The position numbers were made by a program, and so were the translations under genes. DNA of 28,901 nt from Candidatus Electronema aureum (GTDB lineage: Bacteria; Desulfobacterota; Desulfobulbia; Desulfobulbales; Desulfobulbaceae). The first letter of the stretch is position 1; each line of letters opens with the position of its first letter. Of this stretch, positions 1-28,901 are shown piece after piece. The DNA is taken from assembly GCA_004284765.1 (NCBI GenBank), contig NQJD01000031.1:1-28901 (forward strand), read 5' to 3'. A model generated the notes under the pieces. That model worked only from the letters and a program-made list of their open reading frames with translations. It made no database searches and was not told the origin of the DNA.

Positions 1-154
1 ATTACATCGAACTGGCAATACGGGCTTTTCTCCGCATTGAATATCATTGTTTTGTCAAAGGAATTTCTTAGTTCGAGGCAAAGACTGCCATCATCCGTGA
101 CGCTGTTCGGGCGTATTTGACGAAACCAATTTATACGCTTGAGCCTATCAATCT

Positions 155-370
155 TTATGCAACTGCGTAAGTCCTATTCCAGTCAGGATATTCTTTTGCA
201 GCCAGCCCCACGGGGCGTTCTTTGCGCAAGCGCGTCCTTTTCTCTGGCGCAATTGCTTTGATCTCTGCGACCGGCTTGTTACGGCGGCAGATGATCACGG
301 TTTCTCCGGCTTCGGCCTTAGCAAGGGCAGCGGAGAGGTGGCTTTTCATTTCGCTGATGTTGAGCTGCAT
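155..370 (-). CDS. Solo Phd/YefM-family (prevent-host-death-like) type II antitoxin / small DNA-binding protein, 71 aa
   Basis: This lies within track ORF 155..463 (-). I place the start at ATG 370..368 (M32 of the track ORF). It is preceded by AGGAGG (381..376) with a 5-nt spacer, and everything further upstream is CRISPR-repeat and promoter sequence. The product MQLNISEMKSHLSAALAKAEAGETVIICRRNKPVAEIKAI... has the N-terminal pattern typical of Phd/YefM antitoxins (I-x-E-x-K-x-x-L-S ... G-E-x-V-x-I ... K-P-V-A). The stop is TAA at 157..155. Family assignment is from memory of the motif, not from a search. Confidence 0.65.
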   Translation of the reverse strand: MQLNISEMKSHLSAALAKAEAGETVIICRRNKPVAEIKAIAPEKRTRLRKERPVGLAAKEYPDWNRTYAVA

Positions 371-388
371 ACGTTCCTCCTGTAAAAT
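360..388 (+). promoter_or_regulatory. Putative sigma70-type promoter for cas4-cas1-cas2 (TTGAGC-N17-TAAAAT)
   Basis: The -35 is TTGAGC at 360..365, followed by a 17-nt spacer and the -10 TAAAAT at 383..388. The predicted start is near 395-396, 2-3 nt before the solitary repeat. cas4 has no other obvious promoter and no Shine-Dalgarno sequence in 430..480. This is a consensus match only. Confidence 0.3.
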
Positions 389-397
389 GGATTTAAT

Positions 398-429
398 GTC
401 GCCTCCTTCACGGGGGCGTGGATTGAAAC
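398..429 (+). repeat. Solitary (orphan) CRISPR repeat, 32/32 identical to the array repeat and in the same orientation
   Basis: GTCGCCTCCTTCACGGGGGCGTGGATTGAAAC is read directly at 398..429. No second repeat or repeat-like sequence lies within about 35 nt on either side. It sits 51 nt upstream of the cas4 ATG. Confidence 0.95.
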
Positions 430-434
430 CATAC

Positions 435-463
435 ATCATAGATTGCGAGTCCATCCCTGTCAA
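435..463 (-). promoter_or_regulatory. Near-consensus sigma70 promoter driving the antitoxin gene (TTGACA-N17-TATGAT on the minus strand)
   Basis: On the minus strand, TTGACA is at 463..458, followed by a 17-nt spacer (457..441) and TATGAT at 440..435. The predicted start is around 428-432, at the edge of the solitary repeat (429). The 5' UTR would therefore be the antisense of the repeat. Confidence 0.5.
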
Positions 464-480
464 TCAACCTAGAAAATGCC

Positions 481-1110
481 ATGTACAGCGAAGACGACCT
501 CCTGATGATTTCCGCGCTGCAACATCTGTTATTCTGTCCCCGGCAATGTGCCCTTATTCACCTTGAGCAAATCTGGACGGAAAACCGTTTGACTGCTGAA
601 GGGCGACTGATGCACGAGCATGTGCATGAGGCGGGCAGTGATTCCAGAGGCGCGGTGCGGATTGAATACGACATGCCGCTACGTTCCCTGCGGCTGGGGC
701 TTTTAGGCCGGGCAGACGTGGTGGAAATGCAGCGGCAGCCAGATAAGACATGGCAGCCCTTTCCGGTGGAATACAAGCATGGCAAGCCGAAGAAAGACGA
801 CAGCGATTTGGTGCAGCTCTGCGCCCAAGCTCTCTGCTTGGAGGAAATGCTTGGCTGCGCGGTTCCAGCGGGTGCGTTTTATTATGGGGTGAAGAAGCGG
901 CGCACCGAGGTTGCCTTTGATCAGCGGCTGCGGCGAGTCACGGAAGAAGCAGCAGTCCAGCTCCATACGCTGCTTGCTGGCACCATCACACCTGCGCCGG
1001 AATACAACAAACGCTGCGAAAGCTGCTCCCTGATTGACACCTGTCTTCCCCAAACTGCTGGGCGAAGAGGCCGAGTTAGCAATTATATGACAAGGATGAC
1101 GACACTATGA
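481..1110 (+). CDS. cas4: CRISPR-associated exonuclease Cas4 (RecB-like, Fe-S cluster), type I-C style stand-alone Cas4
   Basis: 209 aa. The N-terminus ISALQHLLFCPRQCALIHLEQIW is typical of Cas4. The nuclease motif is D (GRADVV) ... E-x-K (PVEYKHGK). One N-terminal Cys plus the C-terminal C-x2-C-x5-C (CESCSLIDTC) match the 4Fe-4S ligands. Its stop overlaps the cas1 start (ATGA at 1107..1110). Confidence 0.9.
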   Translation: MYSEDDLLMISALQHLLFCPRQCALIHLEQIWTENRLTAEGRLMHEHVHEAGSDSRGAVRIEYDMPLRSLRLGLLGRADVVEMQRQPDKTWQPFPVEYKHGKPKKDDSDLVQLCAQALCLEEMLGCAVPAGAFYYGVKKRRTEVAFDQRLRRVTEEAAVQLHTLLAGTITPAPEYNKRCESCSLIDTCLPQTAGRRGRVSNYMTRMTTL

Positions 1111-2135
1111 AAACGCATCTCAACACCCTGTTTGTAACGACTCAAGGAGCCTATTTAGCCAAAGACGGAGAGACGGTGGCGGTGCGGGTTGAAGGTGAAA
1201 CCAAGCTCCGCCTGCCTGTGCATACCTTGGGCGGGATTGTCTGCTTTGGCAATGTCGGATGCAGCCCCTTTCTCCTTGGCTTTTGCGGCGAGAACAACGT
1301 GGCAGTCAGCTTTCTTGATGAGCATGGCCGCTTTCTGGCGCGGGTGATCGGGCCAGTCTCTGGCAATGTCCTTCTCAGGCGAGAGCAGTACCGCCGTGCC
1401 GATGATCTGGCCTTTTCTGCCCAGATGGCGCGCGCCTTTCTCAGCGGTAAAGTGGGCGGCAGTCGTAACGTGCTTTTGCGCGTGGTGCGCGATCATGGCG
1501 ACAAGGTGGATGTGGAACAGCTCAAGCAAGCCACTGACCGCCTTAGCGCATCGTTGCGGCGGCTTCAGGAAAAGTTGGATTTGGATGCAGTGCGAGGCGT
1601 GGAAGGCGATGCTGCCCATGTCTATTTTCAGCATTTCGATCATCTCATTCTGCGCAACAAAGAGGATTTCTTCTTCCGCGAACGCAGCCGCAGGCCGCCG
1701 CTTGATCGGGTCAACTGCCTGCTCTCGTTCCTTTACACGCTGGTTATGCACGATGTGCGTTCAGCCTTAGAATGCACCGGCCTTGATCCCGCAGTTGGTT
1801 TTCTTCATCGCGACCGACCGGGCCGTCCTGGTTTGGCGTTGGATATGATGGAAGAGTTTAGGCCGTTTGCTGATCGGATCGCCCTGTCGTTGATCAACCT
1901 TGGCCAGCTACAAGGCAAGGATTTCGTCGTTAGCTCCAGCGGCGGGGTACGGATGAAGGACGAGGCAAGGAAAGAGCTATTGACCGCTTATCAGGCGCGC
2001 AAGCAAGACGTGCTGGAACATCCTTTTCTGGGCGAAAAAATGCCGCTCGGTCTCTTCTTTCATACACAAGCCCTGCTCTTGGCCCGCTTCCTACGGGGTG
2101 ATTTAGACGGCTATCCGCCGGTGATGTTTGGATGA
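1107..2135 (+). CDS. cas1: CRISPR-associated integrase/endonuclease Cas1
   Basis: 342 aa. The N-terminus NTLFVTTQGAYLAKDGETVAV and the C-terminal catalytic region GFLHRDRPGRPGLALDMMEEFRP are characteristic of Cas1. It is translationally coupled to cas4. Confidence 0.95.
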   Translation: MKTHLNTLFVTTQGAYLAKDGETVAVRVEGETKLRLPVHTLGGIVCFGNVGCSPFLLGFCGENNVAVSFLDEHGRFLARVIGPVSGNVLLRREQYRRADDLAFSAQMARAFLSGKVGGSRNVLLRVVRDHGDKVDVEQLKQATDRLSASLRRLQEKLDLDAVRGVEGDAAHVYFQHFDHLILRNKEDFFFRERSRRPPLDRVNCLLSFLYTLVMHDVRSALECTGLDPAVGFLHRDRPGRPGLALDMMEEFRPFADRIALSLINLGQLQGKDFVVSSSGGVRMKDEARKELLTAYQARKQDVLEHPFLGEKMPLGLFFHTQALLLARFLRGDLDGYPPVMFG

Positions 2136-2150
2136 AGCCGGAACCAGGCT

Positions 2151-2184
2151 GTCTGTTGACGTTGTCTTAGGCGTGGATTAGCAC
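2151..2184 (+). repeat. Weak repeat-like fragment (psiR1): only the 3' handle part resembles the CRISPR repeat
   Basis: GCGTGGATTAGCAC at 2171..2184 matches the repeat 3' end GCGTGGATTGAAAC at 11/14. GTC at 2151..2153 matches the repeat start. The middle is unrelated and forms no hairpin. TTGACG at 2156..2161 could instead be a -35 box (TTGACG-N17-TAGCAC, with a poor -10). Confidence 0.3.
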
Positions 2185-2193
2185 CGGTTGGAT

Positions 2194-2237
2194 GCAACTC
2201 CCTGAGGTGTTGCTCAGACAAGTCCCCAGGGAGTTGC
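2194..2237 (+). other. Perfect 11-bp inverted repeat (stem-loop) in the cas1-cas2 intergenic region
   Basis: GCAACTCCCTG (2194..2204) is the exact reverse complement of CAGGGAGTTGC (2227..2237), with a 22-nt loop. No T-tract follows, so it is not an obvious intrinsic terminator. Function unknown. Confidence 0.6.
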
Positions 2238-2264
2238 CAAAGCCTGCGCAGAGAAAGAACTCTC

Positions 2265-2299
2265 GTCGCCGCCCTCTTCACGAGGGCGTGGATGGAAAC
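2265..2299 (+). repeat. Degenerate CRISPR repeat (psiR2) 15 nt upstream of the cas2 start codon
   Basis: GTCGCCGCCCTCTTCACGAGGGCGTGGATGGAAAC aligns to the array repeat with a 3-nt insertion and 4 substitutions. The TTCAC loop is identical. The stem is kept as 7 Watson-Crick pairs (2270..2276 with 2282..2288) through compensatory changes. The handle GTGGATGGAAAC differs from GTGGATTGAAAC by one base. Confidence 0.75.
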
Positions 2300-2314
2300 A
2301 GGATGGAAGAATAA

Positions 2315-2605
2315 ATGCTTGTTCTTGTCAGTTACGATGTCAAAACCAGTGATCCCGATGGCCCGAAACGACTGCGGCGAGTTGCCAAAATCTGCCGGGA
2401 TTACGGGCAGAGGGTGCAGTATTCGGTCTTTGAGTGCCTTGTGCCGCCGGATAAATGGGTAGTGATGCGGGCGCGGCTGATTCAGGAGATTGACGAGGAA
2501 AAGGACAGCCTGCGGTTTTATTTTCTCGGTGCCAATTGGAAAAACCGGGTTGAGCATATCGGGGCCAAAGTCGCGATTGACCAAGAAGGGCCGTTGATAG
2601 TATAG
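2315..2605 (+). CDS. cas2: CRISPR-associated endoribonuclease Cas2
   Basis: 96 aa. The N-terminus MLVLVSYDV carries the conserved Asp, and RLRRVAKICRDYGQRVQYSVFEC is the typical Cas2 ferredoxin-fold core. It lies just upstream of the leader and array. Confidence 0.95.
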   Translation: MLVLVSYDVKTSDPDGPKRLRRVAKICRDYGQRVQYSVFECLVPPDKWVVMRARLIQEIDEEKDSLRFYFLGANWKNRVEHIGAKVAIDQEGPLIV

Positions 2606-2809
2606 TTGCGAAATTGTGTTGTCGAGAAGAGAACTACGGGCGGCGCGAACCGCAAGCGAACAGGAAAAGCCGGGAGGTTCGCGGGCCGCGATATAAGGAG
2701 GTGAAAGCTGGAAAAAGCGTGTCACATGTTGGGCGAACGAAACGGAAGAACTATTGTTCGCAAAAATGCAGTAAAATGCCGAATCGCAGCCGTCAGTTGC
2801 GATTCGACA
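2606..2809 (+). promoter_or_regulatory. CRISPR leader (cas2-proximal), containing the presumed array promoter
   Basis: This is 204 bp of non-coding sequence between the cas2 stop and the first repeat. Repeat polarity (3' end ATTGAAAC, as in I-C crRNA 5' handles) makes + the transcribed strand. A candidate -10 TAAAAT is at 2772..2777, but I found no convincing -35. The track ORFs here (2614..2838, 2726..3040) run into the repeats and are not credible. Confidence 0.7.
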
Positions 2810-5800
2810 GTCGCCTCCTTCACGGGGGCGTGGATTGAAACGTCCGTAATTGTCGCGGCGGAAAAATCTGTAGCCGTGTCGCCTCCTTCACGGGGGCGTG
2901 GATTGAAACATCGGCCAAGGACATCGTGCAGGAACTCTGCGACCGTCGCCTCCTTCACGGGGGCGTGGATTGAAACTGGCACGGCGGACAGCACCAGAGA
3001 GTTGACGTTGCGTCGCCTCCTTCACGGGGGCGTGGATTGAAACTTCTTCGTGGCAGGCATACGTGCAGTCATTTCGAGTCGCCTCCTTCACGGGGGCGTG
3101 GATTGAAACTTCAGCAGGTCGCTGCTGTTGAAGATGAGGTACGTCGCCTCCTTCACGGGGGCGTGGATTGAAACACGCGGATCACGCTCGTCGTCATGCC
3201 GAACTTGGTCGCCTCCTTCACGGGGGCGTGGATTGAAACATACTCCAAGAGGTGACAGAATGAGATTTCCCGAAGTCGCCTCCTTCACGGGGGCGTGGAT
3301 TGAAACATTCCACAACTGGCAAGTGAGGTGTGAGAAATCTGTCGCCTCCTTCACGGGGGCGTGGATTGAAACGGTATGCTGTTAGTTACCTGTACGCTTT
3401 TACTTGGTCGCCTCCTTCACGGGGGCGTGGATTGAAACTTGGTTGACTGCTGGGTCGGGGATCAGCACAGACGTCGCCTCCTTCACGGGGGCGTGGATTG
3501 AAACATCCACGCCCTTGTCCAGCACCATGTCCTCGATCGTCGCCTCCTTCACGGGGGCGTGGATTGAAACGTAGCTGATCAATTCTGCCAACTGCCGCGA
3601 CTTGGTCGCCTCCTTCACGGGGGCGTGGATTGAAACACTCTTGCCCGCGCTACGGGCAGGCTCGGTAGCGTCGCCTCCTTCACGGGGGCGTGGATTGAAA
3701 CCTACTTGGGGCAATTAAACAAGCATCTGCCTTTGGTCGCCTCCTTCACGGGGGCGTGGATTGAAACAGTATCGGATGTCGGATAACTCTTGGCGCAGTC
3801 GCCTCCTTCACGGGGGCGTGGATTGAAACTGGTACTAGGTATTGGTTGCGTGCGGATGTAATAGTCGCCTCCTTCACGGGGGCGTGGATTGAAACAGTCT
3901 GTGCGCAATGATCTGATCTCTGCTGACCGTCGCCTCCTTCACGGGGGCGTGGATTGAAACTGCCGGGTTATCCCCCGTGTTTCACTTCGTGCCGTCGCCT
4001 CCTTCACGGGGGCGTGGATTGAAACCTTAGCCGCCGTCCCGCGCGGCCAAGTCTTAGTAGTCGCCTCCTTCACGGGGGCGTGGATTGAAACTAATGATAT
4101 TTTTGCTGCCGGATATATAATATCAGTCGCCTCCTTCACGGGGGCGTGGATTGAAACGGAAAACCTCTAAAGAGCTGAATCTCGAATTTGGTCGCCTCCT
4201 TCACGGGGGCGTGGATTGAAACCCAGCAGTTGTATCAGGCAATGACATGTCACCAAGTCGCCTCCTTCACGGGGGCGTGGATTGAAACTCCGGAATCCGC
4301 TGCCCCTACTGACCCGAAAAACGTCGCCTCCTTCACGGGGGCGTGGATTGAAACACACTGAAACGCACGAGGGCGACGAAATGCTGTACGTCGCCTCCTT
4401 CACGGGGGCGTGGATTGAAACCGAAGACAGACGATCAAGTCAGGATAGAGATCAAGTCGCCTCCTTCACGGGGGCGTGGATTGAAACCTCGTTGCCCTGC
4501 GCTTCCTGACCGGAGGGGATGTCGCCTCCTTCACGGGGGCGTGGATTGAAACACCGCCTCGTTAGCCTGCTCAATGACGGCGTGCTTGTCGCCTCCTTCA
4601 CGGGGGCGTGGATTGAAACTGGAAGAAGCTGGGAACAGGTATATTAGGGACAAGGGTCGCCTCCTTCACGGGGGCGTGGATTGAAACTGGTCAGCATTAG
4701 GATTGCCGTTATAAGTACCAGTCGCCTCCTTCACGGGGGCGTGGATTGAAACTTACCGCCAATGCCGAGGAACTTAACAGCGAGGAGTCGCCTCCTTCAC
4801 GGGGGCGTGGATTGAAACTTCCTGTAGCTGTAGTTCCCAAGCCGCCTCGCCGGTCGCCTCCTTCACGGGGGCGTGGATTGAAACAGCTCGGGACCAAGCT
4901 GTTTCTGTTGCGTTTAAGTCGCCTCCTTCACGGGGGCGTGGATTGAAACGTTAGAGGATGCCAATGCTCGTGCGCTGCCAATTGTCGCCTCCTTCACGGG
5001 GGCGTGGATTGAAACCCCGGCTGCCGGTTGCTTACTTTGACCACCAATTGTCGCCTCCTTCACGGGGGCGTGGATTGAAACAATTGAGCGATACTCATTA
5101 TTGCATTCTATGCCGGTCGCCTCCTTCACGGGGGCGTGGATTGAAACGTACTTAAAATTCTCCCACTCTAATATATGTAGGTCGCCTCCTTCACGGGGGC
5201 GTGGATTGAAACAGCAGGTCTTGTAAAAACGAGCTGGCGCGGTGCGGTCGCCTCCTTCACGGGGGCGTGGATTGAAACACCAGCCTGCTTGATGCCCTCT
5301 GCTCGCACCTTGTCGCCTCCTTCACGGGGGCGTGGATTGAAACCTTTTGCGCGGCCTCGGCGCGGGCCTTGGCGGCGGCAAGTCGCCTCCTTCACGGGGG
5401 CGTGGATTGAAACATCGCCTCGTTAGCCTGCTCAATGACGGTGTACGGTCGCCTCCTTCACGGGGGCGTGGATTGAAACACGGTTTCATTGCCCGTGCGA
5501 CTGGCGACCTCAAGCGTCGCCTCCTTCACGGGGGCGTGGATTGAAACCGCTGTGTGATGTTTTGCTTGCCATACACCATTGGTCGCCTCCTTCACGGGGG
5601 CGTGGATTGAAACAGTTCGCCACAGTTCAAAATTCCGGCAGGCACAAGTCGCCTCCTTCACGGGGGCGTGGATTGAAACTTGTCCCGCACACCCCAGACC
5701 TTGGCCCGACATAGACGGTCGCCTCCTTCACGGGGGCGTGGATTGAAACGGAATCTCCTATTGCCCATCCGAGCACACAGCGGTCGCCTCCTTCACGGGG

Positions 5801-8800
5801 GCGTGGATTGAAACGTACAGGCCGTTCATCGCCAGCGCAGCGGTGTATGGTCGCCTCCTTCACGGGGGCGTGGATTGAAACTGATAGAACAAAATGAAAT
5901 CCTTGCCCCAGACCGTCGCCTCCTTCACGGGGGCGTGGATTGAAACGGCCTTGAATTTAGCCTCAGCCTCCTTCGCCGCTGTCGCCTCCTTCACGGGGGC
6001 GTGGATTGAAACCAAATCGTCCCAGTCCATCTGGTTTGTTGCCCAGTCCGGTCGCCTCCTTCACGGGGGCGTGGATTGAAACTGTGTCAATAATAATCCG
6101 ATCACTCCCGGTTATGTCCGTCGCCTCCTTCACGGGGGCGTGGATTGAAACGTGCATCCGGGGAGCCAAGTACGGATGGCATCGTCGCCTCCTTCACGGG
6201 GGCGTGGATTGAAACATCGGCTCGTCAGCCTGCTCGATGGCGTGCGCCCTCGTCGCCTCCTTCACGGGGGCGTGGATTGAAACAGGTCAATATGGATCAG
6301 CTTAGGATCGGGTGAACCGTCGCCTCCTTCACGGGGGCGTGGATTGAAACCCACTGCTAAACTCCATGATTTATATATGAAGTCGTCGCCTCCTTCACGG
6401 GGGCGTGGATTGAAACAGGAGTGCTGTACTTAGGATTTGCCGGTTTAATGTCGCCTCCTTCACGGGGGCGTGGATTGAAACTTCTGATCCCGCCGCAGCT
6501 TCCGGCCCGGTCGCGTCGCCTCCTTCACGGGGGCGTGGATTGAAACCTGTTCCAGATGCTGTCCAATTTAATACCGGCTTGTCGCCTCCTTCACGGGGGC
6601 GTGGATTGAAACCTACAGCATGGGTTGACCCAGATACTGGCTGCGAGTCGCCTCCTTCACGGGGGCGTGGATTGAAACATGGTCGTCGTGGGCAGGCACC
6701 CGGTGAGGTATGTCGCCTCCTTCACGGGGGCGTGGATTGAAACAAGCTGCATTGTTGCTGATCAGCCTGCTGATTGCGTCGCCTCCTTCACGGGGGCGTG
6801 GATTGAAACTGCTGCGTTTAATGCTGGCGAGTGGAGTTATCATTGTCGCCTCCTTCACGGGGGCGTGGATTGAAACAAGCTCCTATGATGCAACACCATG
6901 CAGCATGTACCAAGTCGCCTCCTTCACGGGGGCGTGGATTGAAACTGATCCAGCTGATAACTCTGACGTTGGCTGGCTCGTCGCCTCCTTCACGGGGGCG
7001 TGGATTGAAACTTTCCAAACACAAAAAAAAACAGAAGCAAGAGAGGTCGCCTCCTTCACGGGGGCGTGGATTGAAACAGCTTGCGTGACTGGGTAAACAT
7101 CTGTAGCCACGGTCGCCTCCTTCACGGGGGCGTGGATTGAAACAAAGCTGGTGCAGCTGTAGCAGCAGAGGCTTGTGTCGCCTCCTTCACGGGGGCGTGG
7201 ATTGAAACGCGTCTGGTACGGTGGTTCAGATGTGCAGACGCGTCGCCTCCTTCACGGGGGCGTGGATTGAAACCTCAAGGAAAGCCCCATGTGGAGTCCT
7301 TTAACCGGTCGCCTCCTTCACGGGGGCGTGGATTGAAACACCGCCACGGGCATTTGATCGGATTGCATGATATCGTCGCCTCCTTCACGGGGGCGTGGAT
7401 TGAAACTTAGAATGCCAGAACGAGCGGTCAAACGCGGCTGGTCGCCTCCTTCACGGGGGCGTGGATTGAAACCGGGTTGATCAGACCACCTACGAAGGTG
7501 CGATCTAGTCGCCTCCTTCACGGGGGCGTGGATTGAAACACTTGAAAGAGCTTGACCGGTACGCATCTGGAAGTCGCCTCCTTCACGGGGGCGTGGATTG
7601 AAACTCTGTAATCTGGGGAAGGATTAAACAAAAAAGTCGCCTCCTTCACGGGGGCGTGGATTGAAACCTGCCGCGCCTTTGACATGGCGATAGATGGTGG
7701 GGTCGCCTCCTTCACGGGGGCGTGGATTGAAACCTCAGTCTCAAAGCCAGCCACAAGTCGATTACTGTCGCCTCCTTCACGGGGGCGTGGATTGAAACCT
7801 TCGTCTCCTTGTCCTGTGCCCGCAGTGCAGCTTCGTCGCCTCCTTCACGGGGGCGTGGATTGAAACCTCGCGAAAACAGTGCGGCGGACGTGCGGATATA
7901 TGTCGCCTCCTTCACGGGGGCGTGGATTGAAACTGTGGTCGACCCGAAACTGCGAAGTTGCGCTTGGTCGCCTCCTTCACGGGGGCGTGGATTGAAACCC
8001 GTCCGGGACAGATTGCAAACTGGGCAACAAATGTCGCCTCCTTCACGGGGGCGTGGATTGAAACATTCAGCAGGGCCGCTGCCTCATCTAACCGCCCGGT
8101 CGCCTCCTTCACGGGGGCGTGGATTGAAACCGCGACGCGAACCTCACGCCGTCGAGCGATGATAGGTCGCCTCCTTCACGGGGGCGTGGATTGAAACTCG
8201 CAATCTCTTGACATAGTTGGCGACGGTGTGTTTGTCGCCTCCTTCACGGGGGCGTGGATTGAAACAGGTGCTTCTGCGCAGCCTCGATATGCGGATTGTC
8301 GTCGCCTCCTTCACGGGGGCGTGGATTGAAACACTGCCCGCCGCCATAGGCAGGGCAAGCGGCGGAGTCGCCTCCTTCACGGGGGCGTGGATTGAAACCA
8401 GTCGCCTGCCTTGGACAGCCGCGCGGCTTCCGTCGCCTCCTTCACGGGGGCGTGGATTGAAACGCTAATAAAGATGAAGAAATACGGCATGTCGCTGGGT
8501 CGCCTCCTTCACGGGGGCGTGGATTGAAACGTTCGCTTAATGCCATTATAGCCCCCATTATGCTGTCGCCTCCTTCACGGGGGCGTGGATTGAAACACTG
8601 GATGCTGCAATACTGGCCGTCGCTTTGGCGAGTCGCCTCCTTCACGGGGGCGTGGATTGAAACACGTGCTCGGCAGTCACCTCTTTGACGCGGCTGTACG
8701 TCGCCTCCTTCACGGGGGCGTGGATTGAAACGCGCTGGCTGTTCTGCTGCCTCATTCCGTTTTTGTCGCCTCCTTCACGGGGGCGTGGATTGAAACCTAC

Positions 8801-11800
8801 GCTGCTGCCGCCAAAGCAGCAGCAGCGGCGTCGCCTCCTTCACGGGGGCGTGGATTGAAACCAGTCGAATCAGATAGCCAGCCTTCACTTTGCGCGTCGC
8901 CTCCTTCACGGGGGCGTGGATTGAAACACGGACGGGCGCCGCAGGCAACGCGGGCTGCTTCGTCGCCTCCTTCACGGGGGCGTGGATTGAAACATTGGCT
9001 TTGATCGCAAGATACCTTTCCCGCAGGTCGCCTCCTTCACGGGGGCGTGGATTGAAACCTCCGCCTTGCGCAGGGATAACATCCAGCTCTTGTCGCCTCC
9101 TTCACGGGGGCGTGGATTGAAACGGAAAATCGTCTCAATCCTGTGCGGCTGCGTCTTGGTCGCCTCCTTCACGGGGGCGTGGATTGAAACGTCCATACTT
9201 ACCTCTCTCTGCTGATTGACCTCTGTCGCCTCCTTCACGGGGGCGTGGATTGAAACATCGCCGGTGCCAAGAATGGAGTTTTTGACGTCGCCTCCTTCAC
9301 GGGGGCGTGGATTGAAACAGTATCCCCAGCGGGATTGCAGGCGGCTGCTGCCAGTCGCCTCCTTCACGGGGGCGTGGATTGAAACCCCCGTTTGGCTGCG
9401 AACGAGGGAACAGGCTAAAACGTCGCCTCCTTCACGGGGGCGTGGATTGAAACTGGGGCCACACGATGCGCTGTGGCGTAGTAGTAGGTCGCCTCCTTCA
9501 CGGGGGCGTGGATTGAAACTGAGTCCAAATGGACTGTCAGCGGTGCGCTGCTCCGTCGCCTCCTTCACGGGGGCGTGGATTGAAACGTACGGCAAGATTG
9601 TCGCGGTCAAAGAGACTGTGCGTCGCCTCCTTCACGGGGGCGTGGATTGAAACCGCTCAACTTCAGCGCGGTTGTTATTGACTGACCGTCGCCTCCTTCA
9701 CGGGGGCGTGGATTGAAACTGGGCTATCCGCGCTGAACCGGCCTTAATCTCTGTCGCCTCCTTCACGGGGGCGTGGATTGAAACAGACCAGCAGCGAGGG
9801 ATTGCTTTGAAGAAACGGTCGCCTCCTTCACGGGGGCGTGGATTGAAACCTCCGGCAAGGAGGGAGGATATGCGGGATGCCACGTCGCCTCCTTCACGGG
9901 GGCGTGGATTGAAACACCATTGAGCACTGTCTTGGTGATCAGCACGGCGAGTCGCCTCCTTCACGGGGGCGTGGATTGAAACACCATCAGCGACATATCA
10001 CAGGTTTGTGCGGTGTGTCGCCTCCTTCACGGGGGCGTGGATTGAAACGAAGAGTCTGCCGCTAAGTCTGGGGTGATATTAGTCGCCTCCTTCACGGGGG
10101 CGTGGATTGAAACAGTTCGCCGTCCGCTCATCTTCAACCTCCTTGAGCGTCGCCTCCTTCACGGGGGCGTGGATTGAAACTGTTCTAATCGGAAGAGCGC
10201 GCGCATTGCCTTCCAGTCGCCTCCTTCACGGGGGCGTGGATTGAAACCTGCGCAACAGATGAGTGTGCGGGTGTCTCGGAGGTCGCCTCCTTCACGGGGG
10301 CGTGGATTGAAACCATCTATTCGCCCTCCTTCGGCAGCCGGGTGCGCGTCGCCTCCTTCACGGGGGCGTGGATTGAAACGATGATTAATAATCTTGATTG
10401 GCTGCCTTCCTACGTCGCCTCCTTCACGGGGGCGTGGATTGAAACACCTTTTCTATCGATACCAGCTAACCAATTGGCTGTCGCCTCCTTCACGGGGGCG
10501 TGGATTGAAACCAAATGTGGACGATACCAAGCGAGAGCGGCAACGGTCGCCTCCTTCACGGGGGCGTGGATTGAAACTGATCCAGCTGATAATTCCGATG
10601 TTGGTTGGCTGTCGCCTCCTTCACGGGGGCGTGGATTGAAACATCCATATCACCTCCGCGCATAAGCAGCTTTGCCGTCGCCTCCTTCACGGGGGCGTGG
10701 ATTGAAACACTGGACGGTCACGCTAAAGAGGAGGACGGCAAAGTCGCCTCCTTCACGGGGGCGTGGATTGAAACTTGGTCGGAGCACTGATCAGGGGGAG
10801 GATTGCAGGTCGCCTCCTTCACGGGGGCGTGGATTGAAACCCGCCGCTGCCGTCCTCCTCAACCCGGAACAGCAGTCGCCTCCTTCACGGGGGCGTGGAT
10901 TGAAACAACGTTAATCCTACTTGAGGGCATTATGTTTAGGCGTCGCCTCCTTCACGGGGGCGTGGATTGAAACACTCGACTGGTTGATCAACGGGAAAGA
11001 ATAAAAAGTCGCCTCCTTCACGGGGGCGTGGATTGAAACAAATCCCCGCTGCGGTCGATTTTGACTGAGGGCGGTGGTCGCCTCCTTCACGGGGGCGTGG
11101 ATTGAAACGTTCTGCCGCCGACAATCTGGTCGCATTATCGCGTCGCCTCCTTCACGGGGGCGTGGATTGAAACTGTCTCCTCGTTGGTATTGCTGTTTTT
11201 AATCTTGTCGCCTCCTTCACGGGGGCGTGGATTGAAACAAAGTGCCCCTGACTTCCTCCGATCCCGGCAAGGGTCGCCTCCTTCACGGGGGCGTGGATTG
11301 AAACTTTCCAGACGTGGCAGGATTTTGGGGTTCGTTTCGTGTCGCCTCCTTCACGGGGGCGTGGATTGAAACAGAGCGGAAGTTTATCAGGATACTCAAG
11401 CGTAGGTCGCCTCCTTCACGGGGGCGTGGATTGAAACAGAACAAATATTCTTCATATTTTCATTGTACATGTCGCCTCCTTCACGGGGGCGTGGATTGAA
11501 ACATTAGCAGGAATTATTAAGGAACCCTGTTTAAAGGTCGCCTCCTTCACGGGGGCGTGGATTGAAACTTTATGGCAGCATCATTGTGTCGTTCTAATGC
11601 GGTCGCCTCCTTCACGGGGGCGTGGATTGAAACTACAATTTCGACGAGTTGGTGATTGGCAATGCAGGTCGCCTCCTTCACGGGGGCGTGGATTGAAACT
11701 GCCATTTTCGTCACTCCGGGAACTCTGTTGCTGGTCGCCTCCTTCACGGGGGCGTGGATTGAAACATCAACCGGGCTGTATCAACCAGCGGCTTTGCGCT

Positions 11801-14800
11801 CGTCGCCTCCTTCACGGGGGCGTGGATTGAAACGTAGCTGCCTGCCGCGCCGTTGACGTGGCGGTAGGTCGCCTCCTTCACGGGGGCGTGGATTGAAACA
11901 CGTTCCAGCCCCCTGTCGCGGGGGCTGGATGCGGTCGCCTCCTTCACGGGGGCGTGGATTGAAACTCATAGCTGTCCGCGTCCTGCACAATCCGCGTAAA
12001 GTCGCCTCCTTCACGGGGGCGTGGATTGAAACTGTATCTGCTGCTGCCAGCTCGCCGCCACAGCAGTCGCCTCCTTCACGGGGGCGTGGATTGAAACTGC
12101 TGATTGATCTCTGCGCCTCTGTCAACTAACCATGTCGCCTCCTTCACGGGGGCGTGGATTGAAACGGCAGCCGGGTGCGCACCCGGCCCGCCGGGTGAAG
12201 TCGCCTCCTTCACGGGGGCGTGGATTGAAACCCCAGCGATTCGGGCGCGGAACAACACCACTTTGGCGTCGCCTCCTTCACGGGGGCGTGGATTGAAACT
12301 TTGCCATCTTGGTCAACGGATCAGGTAGGTCAAGTCGCCTCCTTCACGGGGGCGTGGATTGAAACCCGGCAATTGGCGCGGCCTGCTCCAGCAGCACATG
12401 TCGCCTCCTTCACGGGGGCGTGGATTGAAACCTATCTCAATTCCCGTTTACTGCGCCGCGATAGAGTCGCCTCCTTCACGGGGGCGTGGATTGAAACTGA
12501 TAGACCAAAAATACCGGCAGCTATTGGCCCGTCGCCTCCTTCACGGGGGCGTGGATTGAAACCAAAATGCTGATAATTTTGACCCAGCACAAGTTGCGGT
12601 CGCCTCCTTCACGGGGGCGTGGATTGAAACGGGCCGCCCGCAGAAGTGGGCCAAATTGAAGAAGGTCGCCTCCTTCACGGGGGCGTGGATTGAAACATCA
12701 CCACGCCAACAAGCTGGCTCGCATCAGCGGGGTCGCCTCCTTCACGGGGGCGTGGATTGAAACACCAGCGGCAGCGGAGATGCAGCGTGGGAGCTGGTCG
12801 CCTCCTTCACGGGGGCGTGGATTGAAACCGGTTGCGGAAGAAATCCAGAGAGCAACCGCGCTGGTCGCCTCCTTCACGGGGGCGTGGATTGAAACGTATG
12901 CCCGCCCATAGCAAGCCAGCCGGGTGCCCAGTCGCCTCCTTCACGGGGGCGTGGATTGAAACAGGGGCGGCGGTATCGGTTTCACGTCCTCCTGTGTCGC
13001 CTCCTTCACGGGGGCGTGGATTGAAACATCAGCGCACCGGCCCCGGCAGACTAATTGGAGGTCGCCTCCTTCACGGGGGCGTGGATTGAAACACCGGCGA
13101 GCAGGTCAAGGACTGGGTGGAGCAGGTCGCCTCCTTCACGGGGGCGTGGATTGAAACATGCCACCATGCCCCGCACCCTACTAAAACTCACGTCGCCTCC
13201 TTCACGGGGGCGTGGATTGAAACAACCATCCTTGGAATCATCTGGCGGAGCTGACCAGTCGCCTCCTTCACGGGGGCGTGGATTGAAACAGGGGATGAGG
13301 TGGTGAAGTACCTCGCCGCAGAGGTCGCCTCCTTCACGGGGGCGTGGATTGAAACCGCTCGGCCGCGCGGGGCTGTGGACTGTCAAAGGTCGCCTCCTTC
13401 ACGGGGGCGTGGATTGAAACCCGCCAGCCACGTTGTGAGCTATACGCTGACCAGTCGCCTCCTTCACGGGGGCGTGGATTGAAACCCGCCAGCCACGTTG
13501 TGAGCTATACGCTGACCAGTCGCCTCCTTCACGGGGGCGTGGATTGAAACTGCGGGTGTTGATGTGCAATCTATTATCCCAAAAAGTCGCCTCCTTCACG
13601 GGGGCGTGGATTGAAACTCGTGATAATCGCTTCAAGCCGCTGGGCCGTGGTCGTCGCCTCCTTCACGGGGGCGTGGATTGAAACAGCCAGCTCTTCGATA
13701 TGCCGAGATTTTTCGCTGGTCGCCTCCTTCACGGGGGCGTGGATTGAAACTCAAAAACGCAGTACTGCCGAACACTACAGAGAGTCGCCTCCTTCACGGG
13801 GGCGTGGATTGAAACAGCTTGCCGCCCGCGTTGTCACCGGCAATGAGATGGTCGCCTCCTTCACGGGGGCGTGGATTGAAACGTGGATGAGGCCGCCTGC
13901 ACCAGCGGCGGCCTCTGGTCGCCTCCTTCACGGGGGCGTGGATTGAAACATCGGATGGCGGGCTATGTGGTTTTTCGCCAGCAGTCGCCTCCTTCACGGG
14001 GGCGTGGATTGAAACCGCGCTGGAACAGGCCATGAACGCGCTGTCCGGTGGTCGCCTCCTTCACGGGGGCGTGGATTGAAACGCCCCCGCTTTGGCCTTC
14101 GCCCGCTGCACCGCCGTCGCCTCCTTCACGGGGGCGTGGATTGAAACTTCGTCCCGCTGCTCGGCCACAACAGCAGCGGAAAGTCGCCTCCTTCACGGGG
14201 GCGTGGATTGAAACAAAATTTGGCGCAGAAGTTCGGCGCAAATTGTGCGTCGCCTCCTTCACGGGGGCGTGGATTGAAACCCGTGCGCATTGAAATCGTG
14301 GTGGCTGAATCATGTCGCCTCCTTCACGGGGGCGTGGATTGAAACTTTATCAGGGCGCATTTTATGGCGACGTGTACGGGTCGCCTCCTTCACGGGGGCG
14401 TGGATTGAAACATGCGCTGGGCACCGCCTCCGCCCAGCGCATGAAGTCGCCTCCTTCACGGGGGCGTGGATTGAAACACAATCCACATCCGCCACGCTGG
14501 GATATTGGCCGCAGTCGCCTCCTTCACGGGGGCGTGGATTGAAACGGCTCCTGCCTTTGGATTTGGAAATTCTATGCCGTCGCCTCCTTCACGGGGGCGT
14601 GGATTGAAACACGGCGGCGGATTTGGCATCTGGGCTGCCCCTGGTCGCCTCCTTCACGGGGGCGTGGATTGAAACCAGTTGTTTTTTTTCATTGCCCGCC
14701 GCAGCCGGTGTCGCCTCCTTCACGGGGGCGTGGATTGAAACACGGGCCGCGTCAGCACGCACTTGCGCGGCTGCGTCGCCTCCTTCACGGGGGCGTGGAT

Positions 14801-17800
14801 TGAAACGCCAAGAGCCGCGATGTCGCGGTTGGCAGTTAGGTCGCCTCCTTCACGGGGGCGTGGATTGAAACAGTGAGCTGGCAGATGTATGCGTATCCAC
14901 CTGCGTCGCCTCCTTCACGGGGGCGTGGATTGAAACTGCTGCCGTCGCACTGACCGGCAGCAGAAGAAGAACGTCGCCTCCTTCACGGGGGCGTGGATTG
15001 AAACTTCCGCTCTGCACCGCAGCAGCAGCACCTCAACGTCGCCTCCTTCACGGGGGCGTGGATTGAAACTCGTTTTTCGGAACGATGACTCCTTGCGGCC
15101 AGCGTCGCCTCCTTCACGGGGGCGTGGATTGAAACCCTGCGCTGCATGTCACCATGCCGCCGCCGAACAGTCGCCTCCTTCACGGGGGCGTGGATTGAAA
15201 CATCAACGAATATCCAATCGTATTCGCTATCTTCGTCGCCTCCTTCACGGGGGCGTGGATTGAAACTGTCCGTGAGCATCGCTGGGTACGCAAATCTGCT
15301 GTCGCCTCCTTCACGGGGGCGTGGATTGAAACTAATGGGAAAAGCGCGCGCGTTGTCCTCTAATGAAGGTCGCCTCCTTCACGGGGGCGTGGATTGAAAC
15401 GCCAGTGAAATGCTTGGAGCACATCACCCGTTTGTCGCCTCCTTCACGGGGGCGTGGATTGAAACCCGCGCTGCTGCCGTACCAGCGCGGGTGGATTGGT
15501 CGCCTCCTTCACGGGGGCGTGGATTGAAACGGACGGCTCGGCTGGGACAAGACGCAGCCGCACCGGTCGCCTCCTTCACGGGGGCGTGGATTGAAACGTG
15601 TTGGACTGTATGTTGTCTGCTCTGGCTGTCGTCGCCTCCTTCACGGGGGCGTGGATTGAAACTGGTCGAGGAAAAACGGCCTTCCGCCAGCCCGATGTCG
15701 CCTCCTTCACGGGGGCGTGGATTGAAACTTGATAATAAGAAATAAAGTGTGGTCACTTGTTGTCGCCTCCTTCACGGGGGCGTGGATTGAAACGTGGGGA
15801 CGTACACCGTCATTGAGCAGGCTGACGAGTCGCCTCCTTCACGGGGGCGTGGATTGAAACAGGCAATTTGCAGCCTCCTGCCGTACAGGAAACGTCGCCT
15901 CCTTCACGGGGGCGTGGATTGAAACACCTGCCGCCAGCACCTGCTCTGCGTCTGCTGCGCGTCGCCTCCTTCACGGGGGCGTGGATTGAAACGTGCATGT
16001 GCGGATGCCACAAACCGCTGTTTTGAGTCGCCTCCTTCACGGGGGCGTGGATTGAAACCTGCTGAAGGGAGCGACGGCGGTACTGGACAGAGGTCGCCTC
16101 CTTCACGGGGGCGTGGATTGAAACGTACCATCTATCGCCACGTCAAAGGCGCGGCAGGGTCGCCTCCTTCACGGGGGCGTGGATTGAAACTTTTTCCTGC
16201 TGAAAAGGATTAGGCCCCAGACAGGTCGCCTCCTTCACGGGGGCGTGGATTGAAACGGGATCAGCCCCTGCCCGGATCAGGTGATGGATGCGGTCGCCTC
16301 CTTCACGGGGGCGTGGATTGAAACCTCTCATAGGCACCGTTTAGCTGCGTGACGCAGGTCGCCTCCTTCACGGGGGCGTGGATTGAAACGATTCCGGTAC
16401 AGACGCTGGCTACCGAGGTCAGTCGCCTCCTTCACGGGGGCGTGGATTGAAACTCCTCTTCCTGCTCCTACTGCTGTCCCTTTTGCGTCGCCTCCTTCAC
16501 GGGGGCGTGGATTGAAACGTCTTCGCGCACTTTTGCTCCCGCTTTAGTGAAAGTCGCCTCCTTCACGGGGGCGTGGATTGAAACTTTATACTAATCAAGC
16601 ATTTGCCTTTGGCGTTAGTCGCCTCCTTCACGGGGGCGTGGATTGAAACTGCCAAGTCCGGTAAGGAACCTGAGCAAGGTCGCCTCCTTCACGGGGGCGT
16701 GGATTGAAACATCGGAATCCAAGCAATCCCAAGCAGGAAGCGTACAGTCGCCTCCTTCACGGGGGCGTGGATTGAAACCTGTAGAAGTATCAGTACATTG
16801 TTTAGCACCGAGTCGCCTCCTTCACGGGGGCGTGGATTGAAACCTTTCACGCCGGGCAGCAGCATGAGCAAACGGCGGTCGCCTCCTTCACGGGGGCGTG
16901 GATTGAAACCTTGGCGTGGCCGTCCAAGGAGAAGGCATCCAAGTCGCCTCCTTCACGGGGGCGTGGATTGAAACCCTGCGATGGTTTTGAGATAATCATT
17001 AGATATAGGTCGCCTCCTTCACGGGGGCGTGGATTGAAACATGAAACTCGTCGCCTGATCTTCGACAAGGATGGTCGCCTCCTTCACGGGGGCGTGGATT
17101 GAAACAGATGAAGAGGAGGAAAAAAGCGATTTGAACGCAGGTCGCCTCCTTCACGGGGGCGTGGATTGAAACCGGTCAGGTGTCTGCGAAGGTCGCCGCC
17201 GCTGTTGGTCGCCTCCTTCACGGGGGCGTGGATTGAAACAGCACCCAGCGAACGCACTCGTCATAGGCCCTTAGTCGCCTCCTTCACGGGGGCGTGGATT
17301 GAAACTTGGTGGAAATCATGACCGCGCCAGTGCAACAGAGTCGCCTCCTTCACGGGGGCGTGGATTGAAACTGGAAAACACCGAGGAAAGTTTCGTTCTG
17401 GAAGAGTCGCCTCCTTCACGGGGGCGTGGATTGAAACAACAGGTAGCGGCGGCTGAAGATGAGGTACGTCTCGTCGCCTCCTTCACGGGGGCGTGGATTG
17501 AAACGCACATATAATCTGAGGGTGTCATATTCAACGCCGTCGCCTCCTTCACGGGGGCGTGGATTGAAACGTAATCCTCGCGTCCGTCGGTTGCTGTATG
17601 CCCGTCGCCTCCTTCACGGGGGCGTGGATTGAAACGTCCCCGTCAAAATCGAAATCACAGTCTTTAATATGTCGCCTCCTTCACGGGGGCGTGGATTGAA
17701 ACTCGTCTCTCAGCGTGGATCCAAAACTGGTGGCAGTCGCCTCCTTCACGGGGGCGTGGATTGAAACCTCCTCACGCAATCCTGATGTTGACCTTCAGCA

Positions 17801-20800
17801 GGTCGCCTCCTTCACGGGGGCGTGGATTGAAACGTGATCCTGACCGGCACCGTGAACCTTGGCGGGGTCGCCTCCTTCACGGGGGCGTGGATTGAAACTA
17901 ATCAATCCTGTACTTGTCGTCATTGTGGCGACGTCGCCTCCTTCACGGGGGCGTGGATTGAAACTCTGGAATCTGCGTTTAATGACAAGCGAGGCTTAGT
18001 CGCCTCCTTCACGGGGGCGTGGATTGAAACGCCTTAGCCATGAACGCGAACGATGTTACCATCGTCGCCTCCTTCACGGGGGCGTGGATTGAAACCATGT
18101 AGAACGGTAGCGCGGGTATTAGGGAACGAGTCGCCTCCTTCACGGGGGCGTGGATTGAAACACCCATGTTGTCGTTTTTTCTCCATTCGAATACCGTCGC
18201 CTCCTTCACGGGGGCGTGGATTGAAACACCACCGCATCGTTTTCTTGTATCAATGGTAAAGGTCGCCTCCTTCACGGGGGCGTGGATTGAAACGGTTGCG
18301 GCAGGTATCCAGGCTCTTCAGAAGGTAGTCGCCTCCTTCACGGGGGCGTGGATTGAAACAGGAGGAGCCGAACGCATAGCCTCAATGCACACAGTCGCCT
18401 CCTTCACGGGGGCGTGGATTGAAACCGATGACCTCGACAGCAAAACCCTTATGCTGCAGTCGCCTCCTTCACGGGGGCGTGGATTGAAACCTTGGCAGAA
18501 TCGGGTTTGGACAATGCTCCGGTGTCGCCTCCTTCACGGGGGCGTGGATTGAAACTCCTGCCGCTCCTGCTTTGGCCGCTATGCAGCAGGTCGCCTCCTT
18601 CACGGGGGCGTGGATTGAAACGATACGGTTGAGGATATGCTGCTTGACCGGCCTTATGTCGCCTCCTTCACGGGGGCGTGGATTGAAACAACTGTGTTGA
18701 GCAATGCTCGCAGATAGATGGTGTCGCCTCCTTCACGGGGGCGTGGATTGAAACGTCTTCGGAAGGCAGCCAGACAGCCGGTTTAATATTGTCGCCTCCT
18801 TCACGGGGGCGTGGATTGAAACGAGTTCAGCCCTGTTGCAGTGACCAGAACCCGTAGTCGCCTCCTTCACGGGGGCGTGGATTGAAACTGCCTCGCATAA
18901 GCAGCTTTGCCAGTGGCGGCGTGTCGCCTCCTTCACGGGGGCGTGGATTGAAACAATGACCTGCTTGCCGCGCAAGATTGTCCTACCTGGTCGCCTCCTT
19001 CACGGGGGCGTGGATTGAAACTGTAGCAGACACGGTGTTGATGTTGATCGTACAGGTCGCCTCCTTCACGGGGGCGTGGATTGAAACAAGGATACAGGCA
19101 CGGATTGCCTGGACAACATTGATGTCGCCTCCTTCACGGGGGCGTGGATTGAAACGCTATGCTTCGCATACGCCCATCGCGCAGAAAACGTCGCCTCCTT
19201 CACGGGGGCGTGGATTGAAACTTGGTTGGTAATGGTGCTGAGTTTGGTTTGTCGCTGTCGCCTCCTTCACGGGGGCGTGGATTGAAACTCCGGGATTTGG
19301 AACAAGTTTGCTCATCCTGAAGGTCGCCTCCTTCACGGGGGCGTGGATTGAAACATGCCCGGTTGATTATGGTCAGGAAGCGCAGGAGTCGCCTCCTTCA
19401 CGGGGGCGTGGATTGAAACTTCAAAACAGTACCGCTGATGACAACGCCGCCAGTCGCCTCCTTCACGGGGGCGTGGATTGAAACCTGTTGTCGATATCAA
19501 GGTGCTTGATTCGGAATGTCGCCTCCTTCACGGGGGCGTGGATTGAAACGCCCCTCCCAAAAAGGCCGCTTTTTGGCCCCTAGTCGCCTCCTTCACGGGG
19601 GCGTGGATTGAAACGGCATGTCCTATGAGGATGCTTGTAAGTCTGTGTCGCCTCCTTCACGGGGGCGTGGATTGAAACTGATTACTTTGTTAATGGTGAA
19701 TATAATGTTGGGTCGCCTCCTTCACGGGGGCGTGGATTGAAACTATTTAGATAATACCAGCTACGCTGTTTACCACGTCGCCTCCTTCACGGGGGCGTGG
19801 ATTGAAACAGGCCCTTGGTAGCGACGGTCTCGCTGTGGCCGGTCGCCTCCTTCACGGGGGCGTGGATTGAAACATCTCTCCCGCGCTGATGTTGATCTTT
19901 TCGTCGCCTCCTTCACGGGGGCGTGGATTGAAACGCACAGTTTGCAACTAAAAAGCCCAATAACGAACGTCGCCTCCTTCACGGGGGCGTGGATTGAAAC
20001 CTTAACACCAGCACACTCATCTGTTGAGCAAGAGTCGCCTCCTTCACGGGGGCGTGGATTGAAACTTGTTGCGGTTTGCGAGGCGTTTAAATATGCCTGT
20101 CGCCTCCTTCACGGGGGCGTGGATTGAAACCTGACCGGGGATCAACCGGGCATGAACGGCAGACGTCGCCTCCTTCACGGGGGCGTGGATTGAAACGGAC
20201 TATATTTGCGAATGCAAGGGCAATGACTGCGTCGCCTCCTTCACGGGGGCGTGGATTGAAACGGGCAACAGGTCTTATACCAACAGCATTTTGGAGTCGC
20301 CTCCTTCACGGGGGCGTGGATTGAAACAGCCAAGTTGAAGAGCAGTACACCCGCCGCGTTGGTCGCCTCCTTCACGGGGGCGTGGATTGAAACTCGTCGC
20401 GGTCTGCGAGGCGTTCAAGTACGCCCTGTCGCCTCCTTCACGGGGGCGTGGATTGAAACGTAACGAGTCCTTTGCCTGCGCCGCTACAGCTAAGTCGCCT
20501 CCTTCACGGGGGCGTGGATTGAAACTAGTGAGGTGCGGGGCATGATGGCGGCTCCGGTGGGTCGCCTCCTTCACGGGGGCGTGGATTGAAACATATCAAT
20601 ACTCCTTAGTGTTGGATGGTATAGGAGTCGCCTCCTTCACGGGGGCGTGGATTGAAACAAAGGTAGTCTGATCAACCCGGAAGACCTGAAATGTCGCCTC
20701 CTTCACGGGGGCGTGGATTGAAACGCTTTGGACGGTCACGCCAAGGAAGAGGATGGCAGTCGCCTCCTTCACGGGGGCGTGGATTGAAACTGGGATGTGG

Positions 20801-28767: not shown

Positions 28768-28901
28768 AAGGTTAACCTAATGTGCAACTCTTTTAAACTT
28801 GATTAGGCAGCAATCAAGCCATCCAAGTCAAGTGGAGGGCGGTTATAGACCAAATTAAGGAAGACACAAACAGTGTGCGCCAAAATTTTACGAATCAGAC
28901 G

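Follow-up and report, generated by a model that had tools for sequence, protein, structure and literature searches.

The window analysed here (28,901 nt, contig NQJD01000031.1) comes from Candidatus Electronema aureum GS, a freshwater cable bacterium, and carries the cas4, cas1 and cas2 genes of a type I-C CRISPR system, a CRISPR array of 394 repeats and, on the opposite strand ahead of cas4, a truncated phd/yefM antitoxin gene that abuts an insertion sequence (IS) (Table 1). Between phd and cas4 lies one extra copy of the repeat, GTCGCCTCCTTCACGGGGGCGTGGATTGAAAC, a 32-nt sequence typical of type I-C, which matches the array repeat at 32/32 positions and stands 2.4 kb from the array. Of the repeats in the array itself, 393 are exact and one (28669-28700) carries a single mismatch; the spacers measure 29-38 nt, mostly 33-35 nt, and four of them occur twice. 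No match to the repeat is expected in shuffled sequence. The solitary repeat does not result from misassembly, since all 11,110 comparable nt of the window agree exactly with the closed 2.94-Mb chromosome OW818638.1 (GCA_942492785.1).

Table 1. Features of the window around the solitary repeat and along the array (TIR, terminal inverted repeat; ORF, open reading frame; UTR, untranslated region).
Feature	Position	Strand	Remarks
Right end of 1,058-bp IS	1..176	+	DDE transposase ORF ends at 71; TIR CAACTGCGTAAGTCCTA at 160-176
Truncated phd/yefM antitoxin gene, 71 aa	155..370	-	PF02604; ATG at 370
Native phd 5' UTR	371..397	-	AGGAGG Shine-Dalgarno 381-376, 5 nt to ATG; L098 5' UTR similar
Solitary exact type I-C CRISPR repeat	398..429	+	Same orientation as cas4-cas1-cas2 and array
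phd promoter, TTGACA (463-458)-17-TATGAT (440-435)	435..463	-	Predicted start ~G430/G429
Candidate promoter, TTGAGC (360-365)-17-TAAAAT (383-388)	360..388	+	9/12, weak, unconserved
cas4	481..1110	+	PF01930
cas1	1107..2135	+	PF01867
Degenerate repeat-like element GTCGCCGCCCTCTTCACGAGGGCGTGGATGGAAAC	2265..2299	+	15 nt upstream of cas2; kept in L002, L003
cas2	2315..2605	+	PF09827; also a gene call in L001
Array leader, 204 nt	2606-2809		Between cas2 and array
CRISPR array, 394 repeats	2810..28767	+	Next-to-last repeat with a G-to-A change

The locus was compared with related loci, among which L001 is the same genome, L002 is E. nielsenii F5 and L003 is Electronema sp. PJ, while L083-L088 (Phd 83% identical), L149 (84%), and L143/L144 and L098 (59%) encode close homologues of the Phd protein. 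The close Phd loci share an architecture in which cas5-cas8c-cas7-fic is followed by vapC (PIN toxin) and phd, transcribed on the opposite strand from phd towards vapC, and then by cas4-cas1-cas2. The PIN toxin is intact in L087 and L143, with phd-vapC placed between fic and cas4.

On the minus strand, the phd promoter scores 11/12 and is the top site in positions 1-3200, and its -10 hexamer is followed by GTATG, the 32-nt anti-repeat, 27 nt holding the AGGAGG at 381-376, 5 nt and the ATG at 370. An earlier note on this DNA, made from the letters alone, had described the exact repeat, this promoter and the spacing from AGGAGG to the start codon, and we confirm them as written. The promoter is kept in L083, L087, L088, L098, L143, L144 and L149 as TTGAC[A/T]-17-TA[C/T]nnT, where it scores 9-12/12 and reaches a perfect TTGACA-17-TATAAT in L143 and L149; the TTGAC never varies, nor do the T, A and final T of the -10, in a region with a mean column identity of 55%. 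Because both the position and the hexamers are conserved in seven otherwise diverged loci, there is good comparative evidence that this promoter is genuine. The phd transcript is accordingly predicted by sequence to start at or beside the anti-repeat, which would form its first ~32 nt, and the note's proposal that the antitoxin mRNA begins in this way is supported by the promoter conservation, with the start itself a prediction. The anti-repeat (minus strand, 403-409) also contains a strong Shine-Dalgarno-like AAGGAGG, with no canonical start codon after this decoy, and the CCUCCUU in the sense repeat resembles the 16S rRNA 3' end. The facing plus-strand promoter of the note found no such backing. 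Its hexamers are present, but its score is low; the -35 is made up of phd codons 1-4, the -10 falls in sequence peculiar to the window, and no such site occurs at the corresponding position in any of the relatives.

Both flanks of the solitary repeat are native intergenic DNA that aligns to the promoter and 5' UTR of the relatives, and in the alignment the repeat is an insertion relative to five other loci. The distance from the -10 to the ATG is 64 nt in the window, compared to 39, 35, 35 and 27 nt in L083, L087, L098 and L143, and falls to 32 nt when the 32-nt repeat is taken out. As the relatives' flanks align and the distance is longer by about the length of the repeat, the repeat is a clean, one-unit and lineage-specific insertion at the predicted transcription start. 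A comparison of the 32-nt flanks (366-397 and 430-461) by eye showed no target-site or integrase-style duplication, and the array spacers matched neither flank. Homology to the array leader is limited to the 8-nt GTAAAATG, which stands at a different distance from the repeat and was treated as chance. The flank at 430-456 is not a spacer fragment; it aligns with the promoter spacer and -10 of the relatives, and the array spacers do not match it. A comparison with L002 had raised the idea of a rearrangement junction at ~456, with the -35 as a former fic 3' end, and this was rejected on finding the promoter conserved in intact phd-cas4 loci. The GTCGCCTC that precedes the -35 in L002, considered as a possible repeat remnant, encodes the conserved Arg-Arg-Leu C-terminus of Fic, and its resemblance to the repeat is probably a coincidence.

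No repeat is present in the phd-cas4 intergenic region of L083-L088, L098, L143/L144 or L149, which together make up every readable related junction, and ~50 more distant related I-C loci that contain arrays show no solo repeat ahead of cas4; their solo repeat matches are almost exclusively decayed terminal repeats. The earlier note had named conservation of the junction as a check on its proposal, which would be weakened if no related locus carried it, and on this count the proposal is weakened. In the closest relatives, L002 (Cas1 96% identical) and L003 (Cas1 95%), fic lies directly upstream of cas4. These two are cargo-deletion derivatives from which phd-vapC is gone up to the -35, leaving only the -35-proximal stub CTGT[C/T]AATCA.

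The gene read from this promoter is a remnant. Its product matches the Phd family (PF02604) at 31.9 bits against a cut-off of 29.8, with the N-terminal Phd DNA-binding domain present, and is 75-84% identical to homologues of 80-89 aa. Homology to the full-length 85-aa relatives stops at codon 66 (~177), where the IS starts, and the last five codons and the stop derive from the TIR of the IS. The conserved PLPDDILAYFTGE tail of Phd is absent, and about the last 20 residues are lost. The IS measures 1,058 bp, encodes a DDE_Tnp_1 transposase and is bounded by 17-bp TIRs at L001 8639-8655 and 9680-9696 (the latter being window 160-176); an IS30-like pseudogene lies further left. The 71-aa protein is recorded at NCBI as an antitoxin of Ca. 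Electronema aureum, and a 94-aa gene-caller version that translates the anti-repeat is present in this genome alone. What the note called an antitoxin is thus a Phd protein cut to 71 aa by the IS, and no toxin gene adjoins it.

No toxin (PIN/vapC) ORF was found beside phd, and the adjoining DNA on the IS side lacks the remainder of phd as well as vapC, fic and cas7. Upstream of phd are a BrnTA pair, an integrase, lon and two IS elements, and the first 10 kb hold none of cas3, cas5, cas8c or cas7. A search with the Cas7 of Electronema sp. PJ returned no protein of the OW818638.1 genome among the 120 matches listed (at least 78% identity), and the member lists of the eight closest clusters likewise lack a Cas7 of this genome, whose Cas4 and Phd are both in the protein database searched; Cas5c was not itself searched. 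On this indirect evidence, the effector module, including Cas5c, appears to have been lost together with vapC and fic. With no close Cas7 from this closed genome on record, the presence of mature crRNAs (CRISPR RNAs) processed by Cas5c is doubtful in this strain.

The I-C loci of this clade often carry stray repeats and mini-arrays where one gene meets the next. Ectopic CRISPR repeats are known to be born and lost frequently, some having been co-opted as mini-arrays that regulate promoters of cas genes or toxin-antitoxin cargo (Shmakov et al. 2023, PMC10120712). Within type I-C cas operons, solitary repeat units (SRUs) repress embedded defence cargo (bioRxiv 10.1101/2024.12.27.630466), and SRUs, single-unit ones among them, are reported to yield crRNA-like RNAs that repress cargo promoters (bioRxiv 10.1101/2024.12.27.630466; PMC10120712). 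A search for literature on CRISPR in cable bacteria found nothing relevant. In the window, the 179-nt gap between cas1 and cas2 (2136-2314) holds an older repeat-like element 15 nt before the cas2 ATG, which exceeds the repeat by 3 nt in length and, compared with it over 32 nt without gaps, shows five mismatches; it is kept in L002 and L003, and L016 provides an independent case. A repeat-like hairpin directly follows cas7 in L003 (8491-8522), L083, L087 and L145 (9852-9885), and in L145 it is located 5 nt before the cas4 ATG. L143 has a full mini-array with a 33-nt spacer after cas7 (3909-4031), and in L143 and L149 a solo copy with the exact sequence stands behind cas2 and a degenerate copy inside the leader. 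Repeat-like sequence also occurs at or after the fic 3' end (the sites after cas7 or fic include L143 ~4808-4841 and L148 10712-10743). In L143, L148 and L149 such sequences stand on either side of fic, which thus resembles a spacer in its placement. In L084-L086 (for example L084 300-900), cas1 is cut to 259 aa and is followed by a repeat, a 20-nt spacer and a second repeat; this pair is fused to the middle of cas2, after which a normal leader and array follow.

The cas1-cas2 gap of the window also holds a handle-like GCGTGGATTAGCAC (2171-2184) and an 11-bp hairpin (2194-2204/2227-2237), while the gap in L145/146 contains a promoter, a mini-array and, behind it, a relB-parE pair, and that in L003 (11030-11450) is filled by tandem ~84-nt units ahead of the repeat-like element that precedes cas2. 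In L002 (2143-2211), the repeat-like element after cas1 runs straight into AACCTAATGTGCAACTC, which in the window is the array trailer (28774-28790); either recombination between repeats deleted cas2 and the array, or the short contig is a collapsed assembly. The 12-nt CAATCAACCTAA occurs on both sides of cas4-cas1 in L002. A repeat-like sequence in L017 (4851-4882) lies 5.1 kb upstream of cas1, with stem arms that have changed compensatorily (GTCATCCCC...GGGGATG vs GTCGCCCCC...GGGGGCG), and is a candidate for a conserved SRU near cas3/cas5. The type I-C operons of the clade (L145, L146, L148, L143, L087) carry abundant cargo at gene boundaries: mqsRA precedes cas3, two toxin-antitoxin pairs separate cas3 from cas5, fic follows cas7, vapC-phd stands ahead of cas4, and relBE lies in the cas1-cas2 gap. 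L145 carries a Rep3 replication gene and may be a plasmid.

On the basis of these features, we consider the solitary repeat to be probably a recent ectopic copy that landed at the +1 of a genuine promoter for cargo, within a locus that IS activity is degrading. The recent date is suggested by its 32/32 match to the array repeat, compared to the five mismatches of the older element before cas2. In relatives, this promoter drives a phd-vapC cargo operon embedded in the cas operon. The 32-nt repeat would have entered the divergent phd-cas4 intergenic region as a clean unit, 5 nt downstream of the -10, possibly copied by recombination or by a side reaction of the integrase at repeats. As a result, the phd transcript of this strain would open with the anti-repeat, and any rightward cas4 transcript would carry the sense repeat hairpin, both of which we judge to be by-products of the landing site and not evolved regulation. 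The locus is decaying: an IS cuts phd, vapC, fic and cas7 are missing nearby, and the effector module is apparently lost. Several points speak against this reading. The clean placement of exactly one repeat unit at the transcription start is odd, and we can name no mechanism that would produce it. The age of the insertion cannot be dated from L002 and L003, whose deletions remove the junction, and the perfect identity of the copy could reflect selection or gene conversion and not recency. The absence of the effector rests on the gene calls of a protein database and not on a genome scan. In addition, repeat-like hairpins are conserved at analogous spots in relatives, such as the one 5 nt before cas4 in L145, and a role on the sense strand is for this reason not far-fetched.

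Such a role would make the solitary repeat an element of the cas4-cas1-cas2 transcript, either a binding and cleavage site for Cas5c or the source of an SRU-type crRNA-like RNA, and by analogy we regard it as possible, if rather unlikely. The repeat has the orientation of the cas genes and the array, relatives have repeat-like hairpins after cas7 and just upstream of the next gene (L003, L083, L087, L145) and a mini-array in L143, repeat-like hairpins stand 15-28 nt upstream of cas2, and the reported repression of cargo promoters by type I-C SRUs extends to single units (bioRxiv 10.1101/2024.12.27.630466; PMC10120712). However, the position of the repeat is unconserved, no second repeat is present within 464-500, and the plus-strand promoter is weak and without counterparts. 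What follows the repeat as a pseudo-spacer (430-464) corresponds to the local promoter and has AAC beside it in place of a TTC protospacer-adjacent motif (PAM). A search with it found no target with a TTC PAM and seed in 12 kb of L001, and four PAM-plus-seed sites in 85 kb of the relatives, where 4.4 were expected, all in coding sequence. We therefore rejected a crRNA-like guide, as the pseudo-spacer scans at chance level; the mini-array spacers of L143 and L145 do likewise, and no promoter target was found for that of L143. The Cascade and Cas5c partners also appear to be missing, no close Cas7 of this genome being on record. A 5-bp hairpin at 441-465 is present in the minimum-energy fold and not in the centroid. 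A different origin, that of a relic boundary repeat, would have the cargo (fic, vapC-phd) enter a mini-array between cas7 and cas4, with the right-hand copy surviving here and the relatives having lost theirs. The repeat-like sequences that flank fic in three loci and the mini-arrays that adjoin cargo genes are in keeping with this account, yet it needs a precise, traceless loss of 32 nt in several independent lineages, and a relic of such age would be expected to show the decay seen in the other repeat-like elements; we consider it unlikely.

The earlier note had raised a function for the antisense strand, in which the anti-repeat leader of phd would base-pair with repeats of the pre-crRNA or with a sense leader of cas4. 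It proposed a CreTA-like coupling of antitoxin and array, a tracrRNA-like (trans-activating crRNA) part in crRNA maturation, or interference between convergent promoters, and these modes are very unlikely even when taken jointly. The promoter is real by comparison and the start is placed at the repeat edge, and the leader is, by construction, perfectly complementary to 393 of the 394 array repeats; the note's claim of complementarity to all of them thus holds except for the one repeat with a single mismatch. On the other side, none of the seven related junctions has a repeat, and an antitoxin cut at codon 66 and deprived of its toxin leaves nothing to which the cell could be addicted. Processed crRNAs are doubtful, and no type II or V effector is present, as the window and the 10 kb upstream hold only the I-C genes cas4, cas1 and cas2, and the systems of the relatives are of the cas3-5-8c-7 kind. 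In antisense the hairpin loses strength relative to its sense form, since the U-G wobble of the sense strand turns into an A-C mismatch. The fold of the anti-repeat leader (z = 0.26) and that of the sense strand (z = 0.45) are unremarkable, so a special RNA structure of the repeat region was rejected, and Rfam gave only sub-threshold CRISPR-DR9 matches. With the repeat unconserved, the toxin-binding C-terminus of Phd and vapC gone and the leader fold ordinary, the coupling modes are not supported, and interference lacks support along with the plus-strand promoter that it requires and that the relatives do not have. We give an even smaller chance to a firing phd promoter whose anti-repeat RNA pairs either with the pre-crRNA (26 kb, 394 repeat hairpins) or with a sense leader of cas4. 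Were this the case, the anti-repeat RNA would amount to a tracrRNA-like antisense layer that arose recently and by accident in type I-C, through which RNase III could cut or destabilise the array transcripts of a strain without Cas5c, or a Phd-derived repressor could be tied to transcription of the array. A false join at a CRISPR repeat is effectively excluded as the source of the solitary copy. Repeats do cause misassemblies and the left end of the window breaks inside an IS, but beyond the identity to the closed chromosome, the two flanks are halves of one conserved promoter and 5' UTR unit.

As in CreTA (Cascade-repressed toxin-antitoxin RNA pairs) and CreR (Cas-regulating mini-CRISPRs), a CRISPR-derived repeat adjoins a toxin-antitoxin element within a cas locus. 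However, CreA and CreR act as crRNA-like guides in the sense orientation, carry two degenerate repeats, match a promoter through their seed and require Cascade, whereas the window has one repeat, no target that we could find, the toxinless remnant of a protein antitoxin and apparently no Cascade. The likeness to tracrRNA of type II and some type V systems lies in a predicted RNA that is complementary to the CRISPR repeat and encoded beside cas genes. The window differs in its type I-C context, in having no Cas9 or Cas12 and in an anti-repeat that is unconserved. Its predicted anti-repeat also complements the repeat perfectly over the full length and forms the 5' end of an mRNA, whereas tracrRNA is a small RNA with a 3' scaffold and a terminator. 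If functional, the anti-repeat leader would give type I systems their first antisense partner of the tracrRNA kind, but the evidence points the opposite way. The Phd/YefM-VapC cargo of the relatives is matched by the N-terminal Phd domain, the conserved sigma-70 promoter and the conserved position, which in relatives with an intact PIN toxin (L087, L143) is between fic and cas4, although here the antitoxin lacks ~20 C-terminal residues and the toxin gene is gone.

The closest counterparts are the standalone repeats and SRUs (PMC10120712; bioRxiv 10.1101/2024.12.27.630466). The solitary repeat matches the repeat of its own locus over at least 16 bp, outside the array and in an intergenic region of a cas locus, and is by that definition a standalone CRISPR repeat, an already known type. 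It shares with them the off-array intergenic position in a type I cas locus beside toxin-antitoxin cargo, and a clade rich in off-array copies and mini-arrays. It differs from them in being an exact single copy with no second repeat and no PAM-flanked partial promoter target found, and in being unconserved. It also lies within the 5' UTR of a divergent gene, so that it is predicted to be transcribed in antisense as well, an unusual context that is not conserved either. The window is a snapshot of stray repeats scattering within cas loci, here onto the start of a promoter in a decaying locus. The more useful by-product of this analysis is that the I-C operons of cable bacteria hold a wealth of toxin-antitoxin and Fic cargo between their genes. 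This boundary cargo is flanked by conserved repeat-like hairpins and mini-arrays and so provides good candidates for CRISPR-supervised cargo circuits of the kind described recently.

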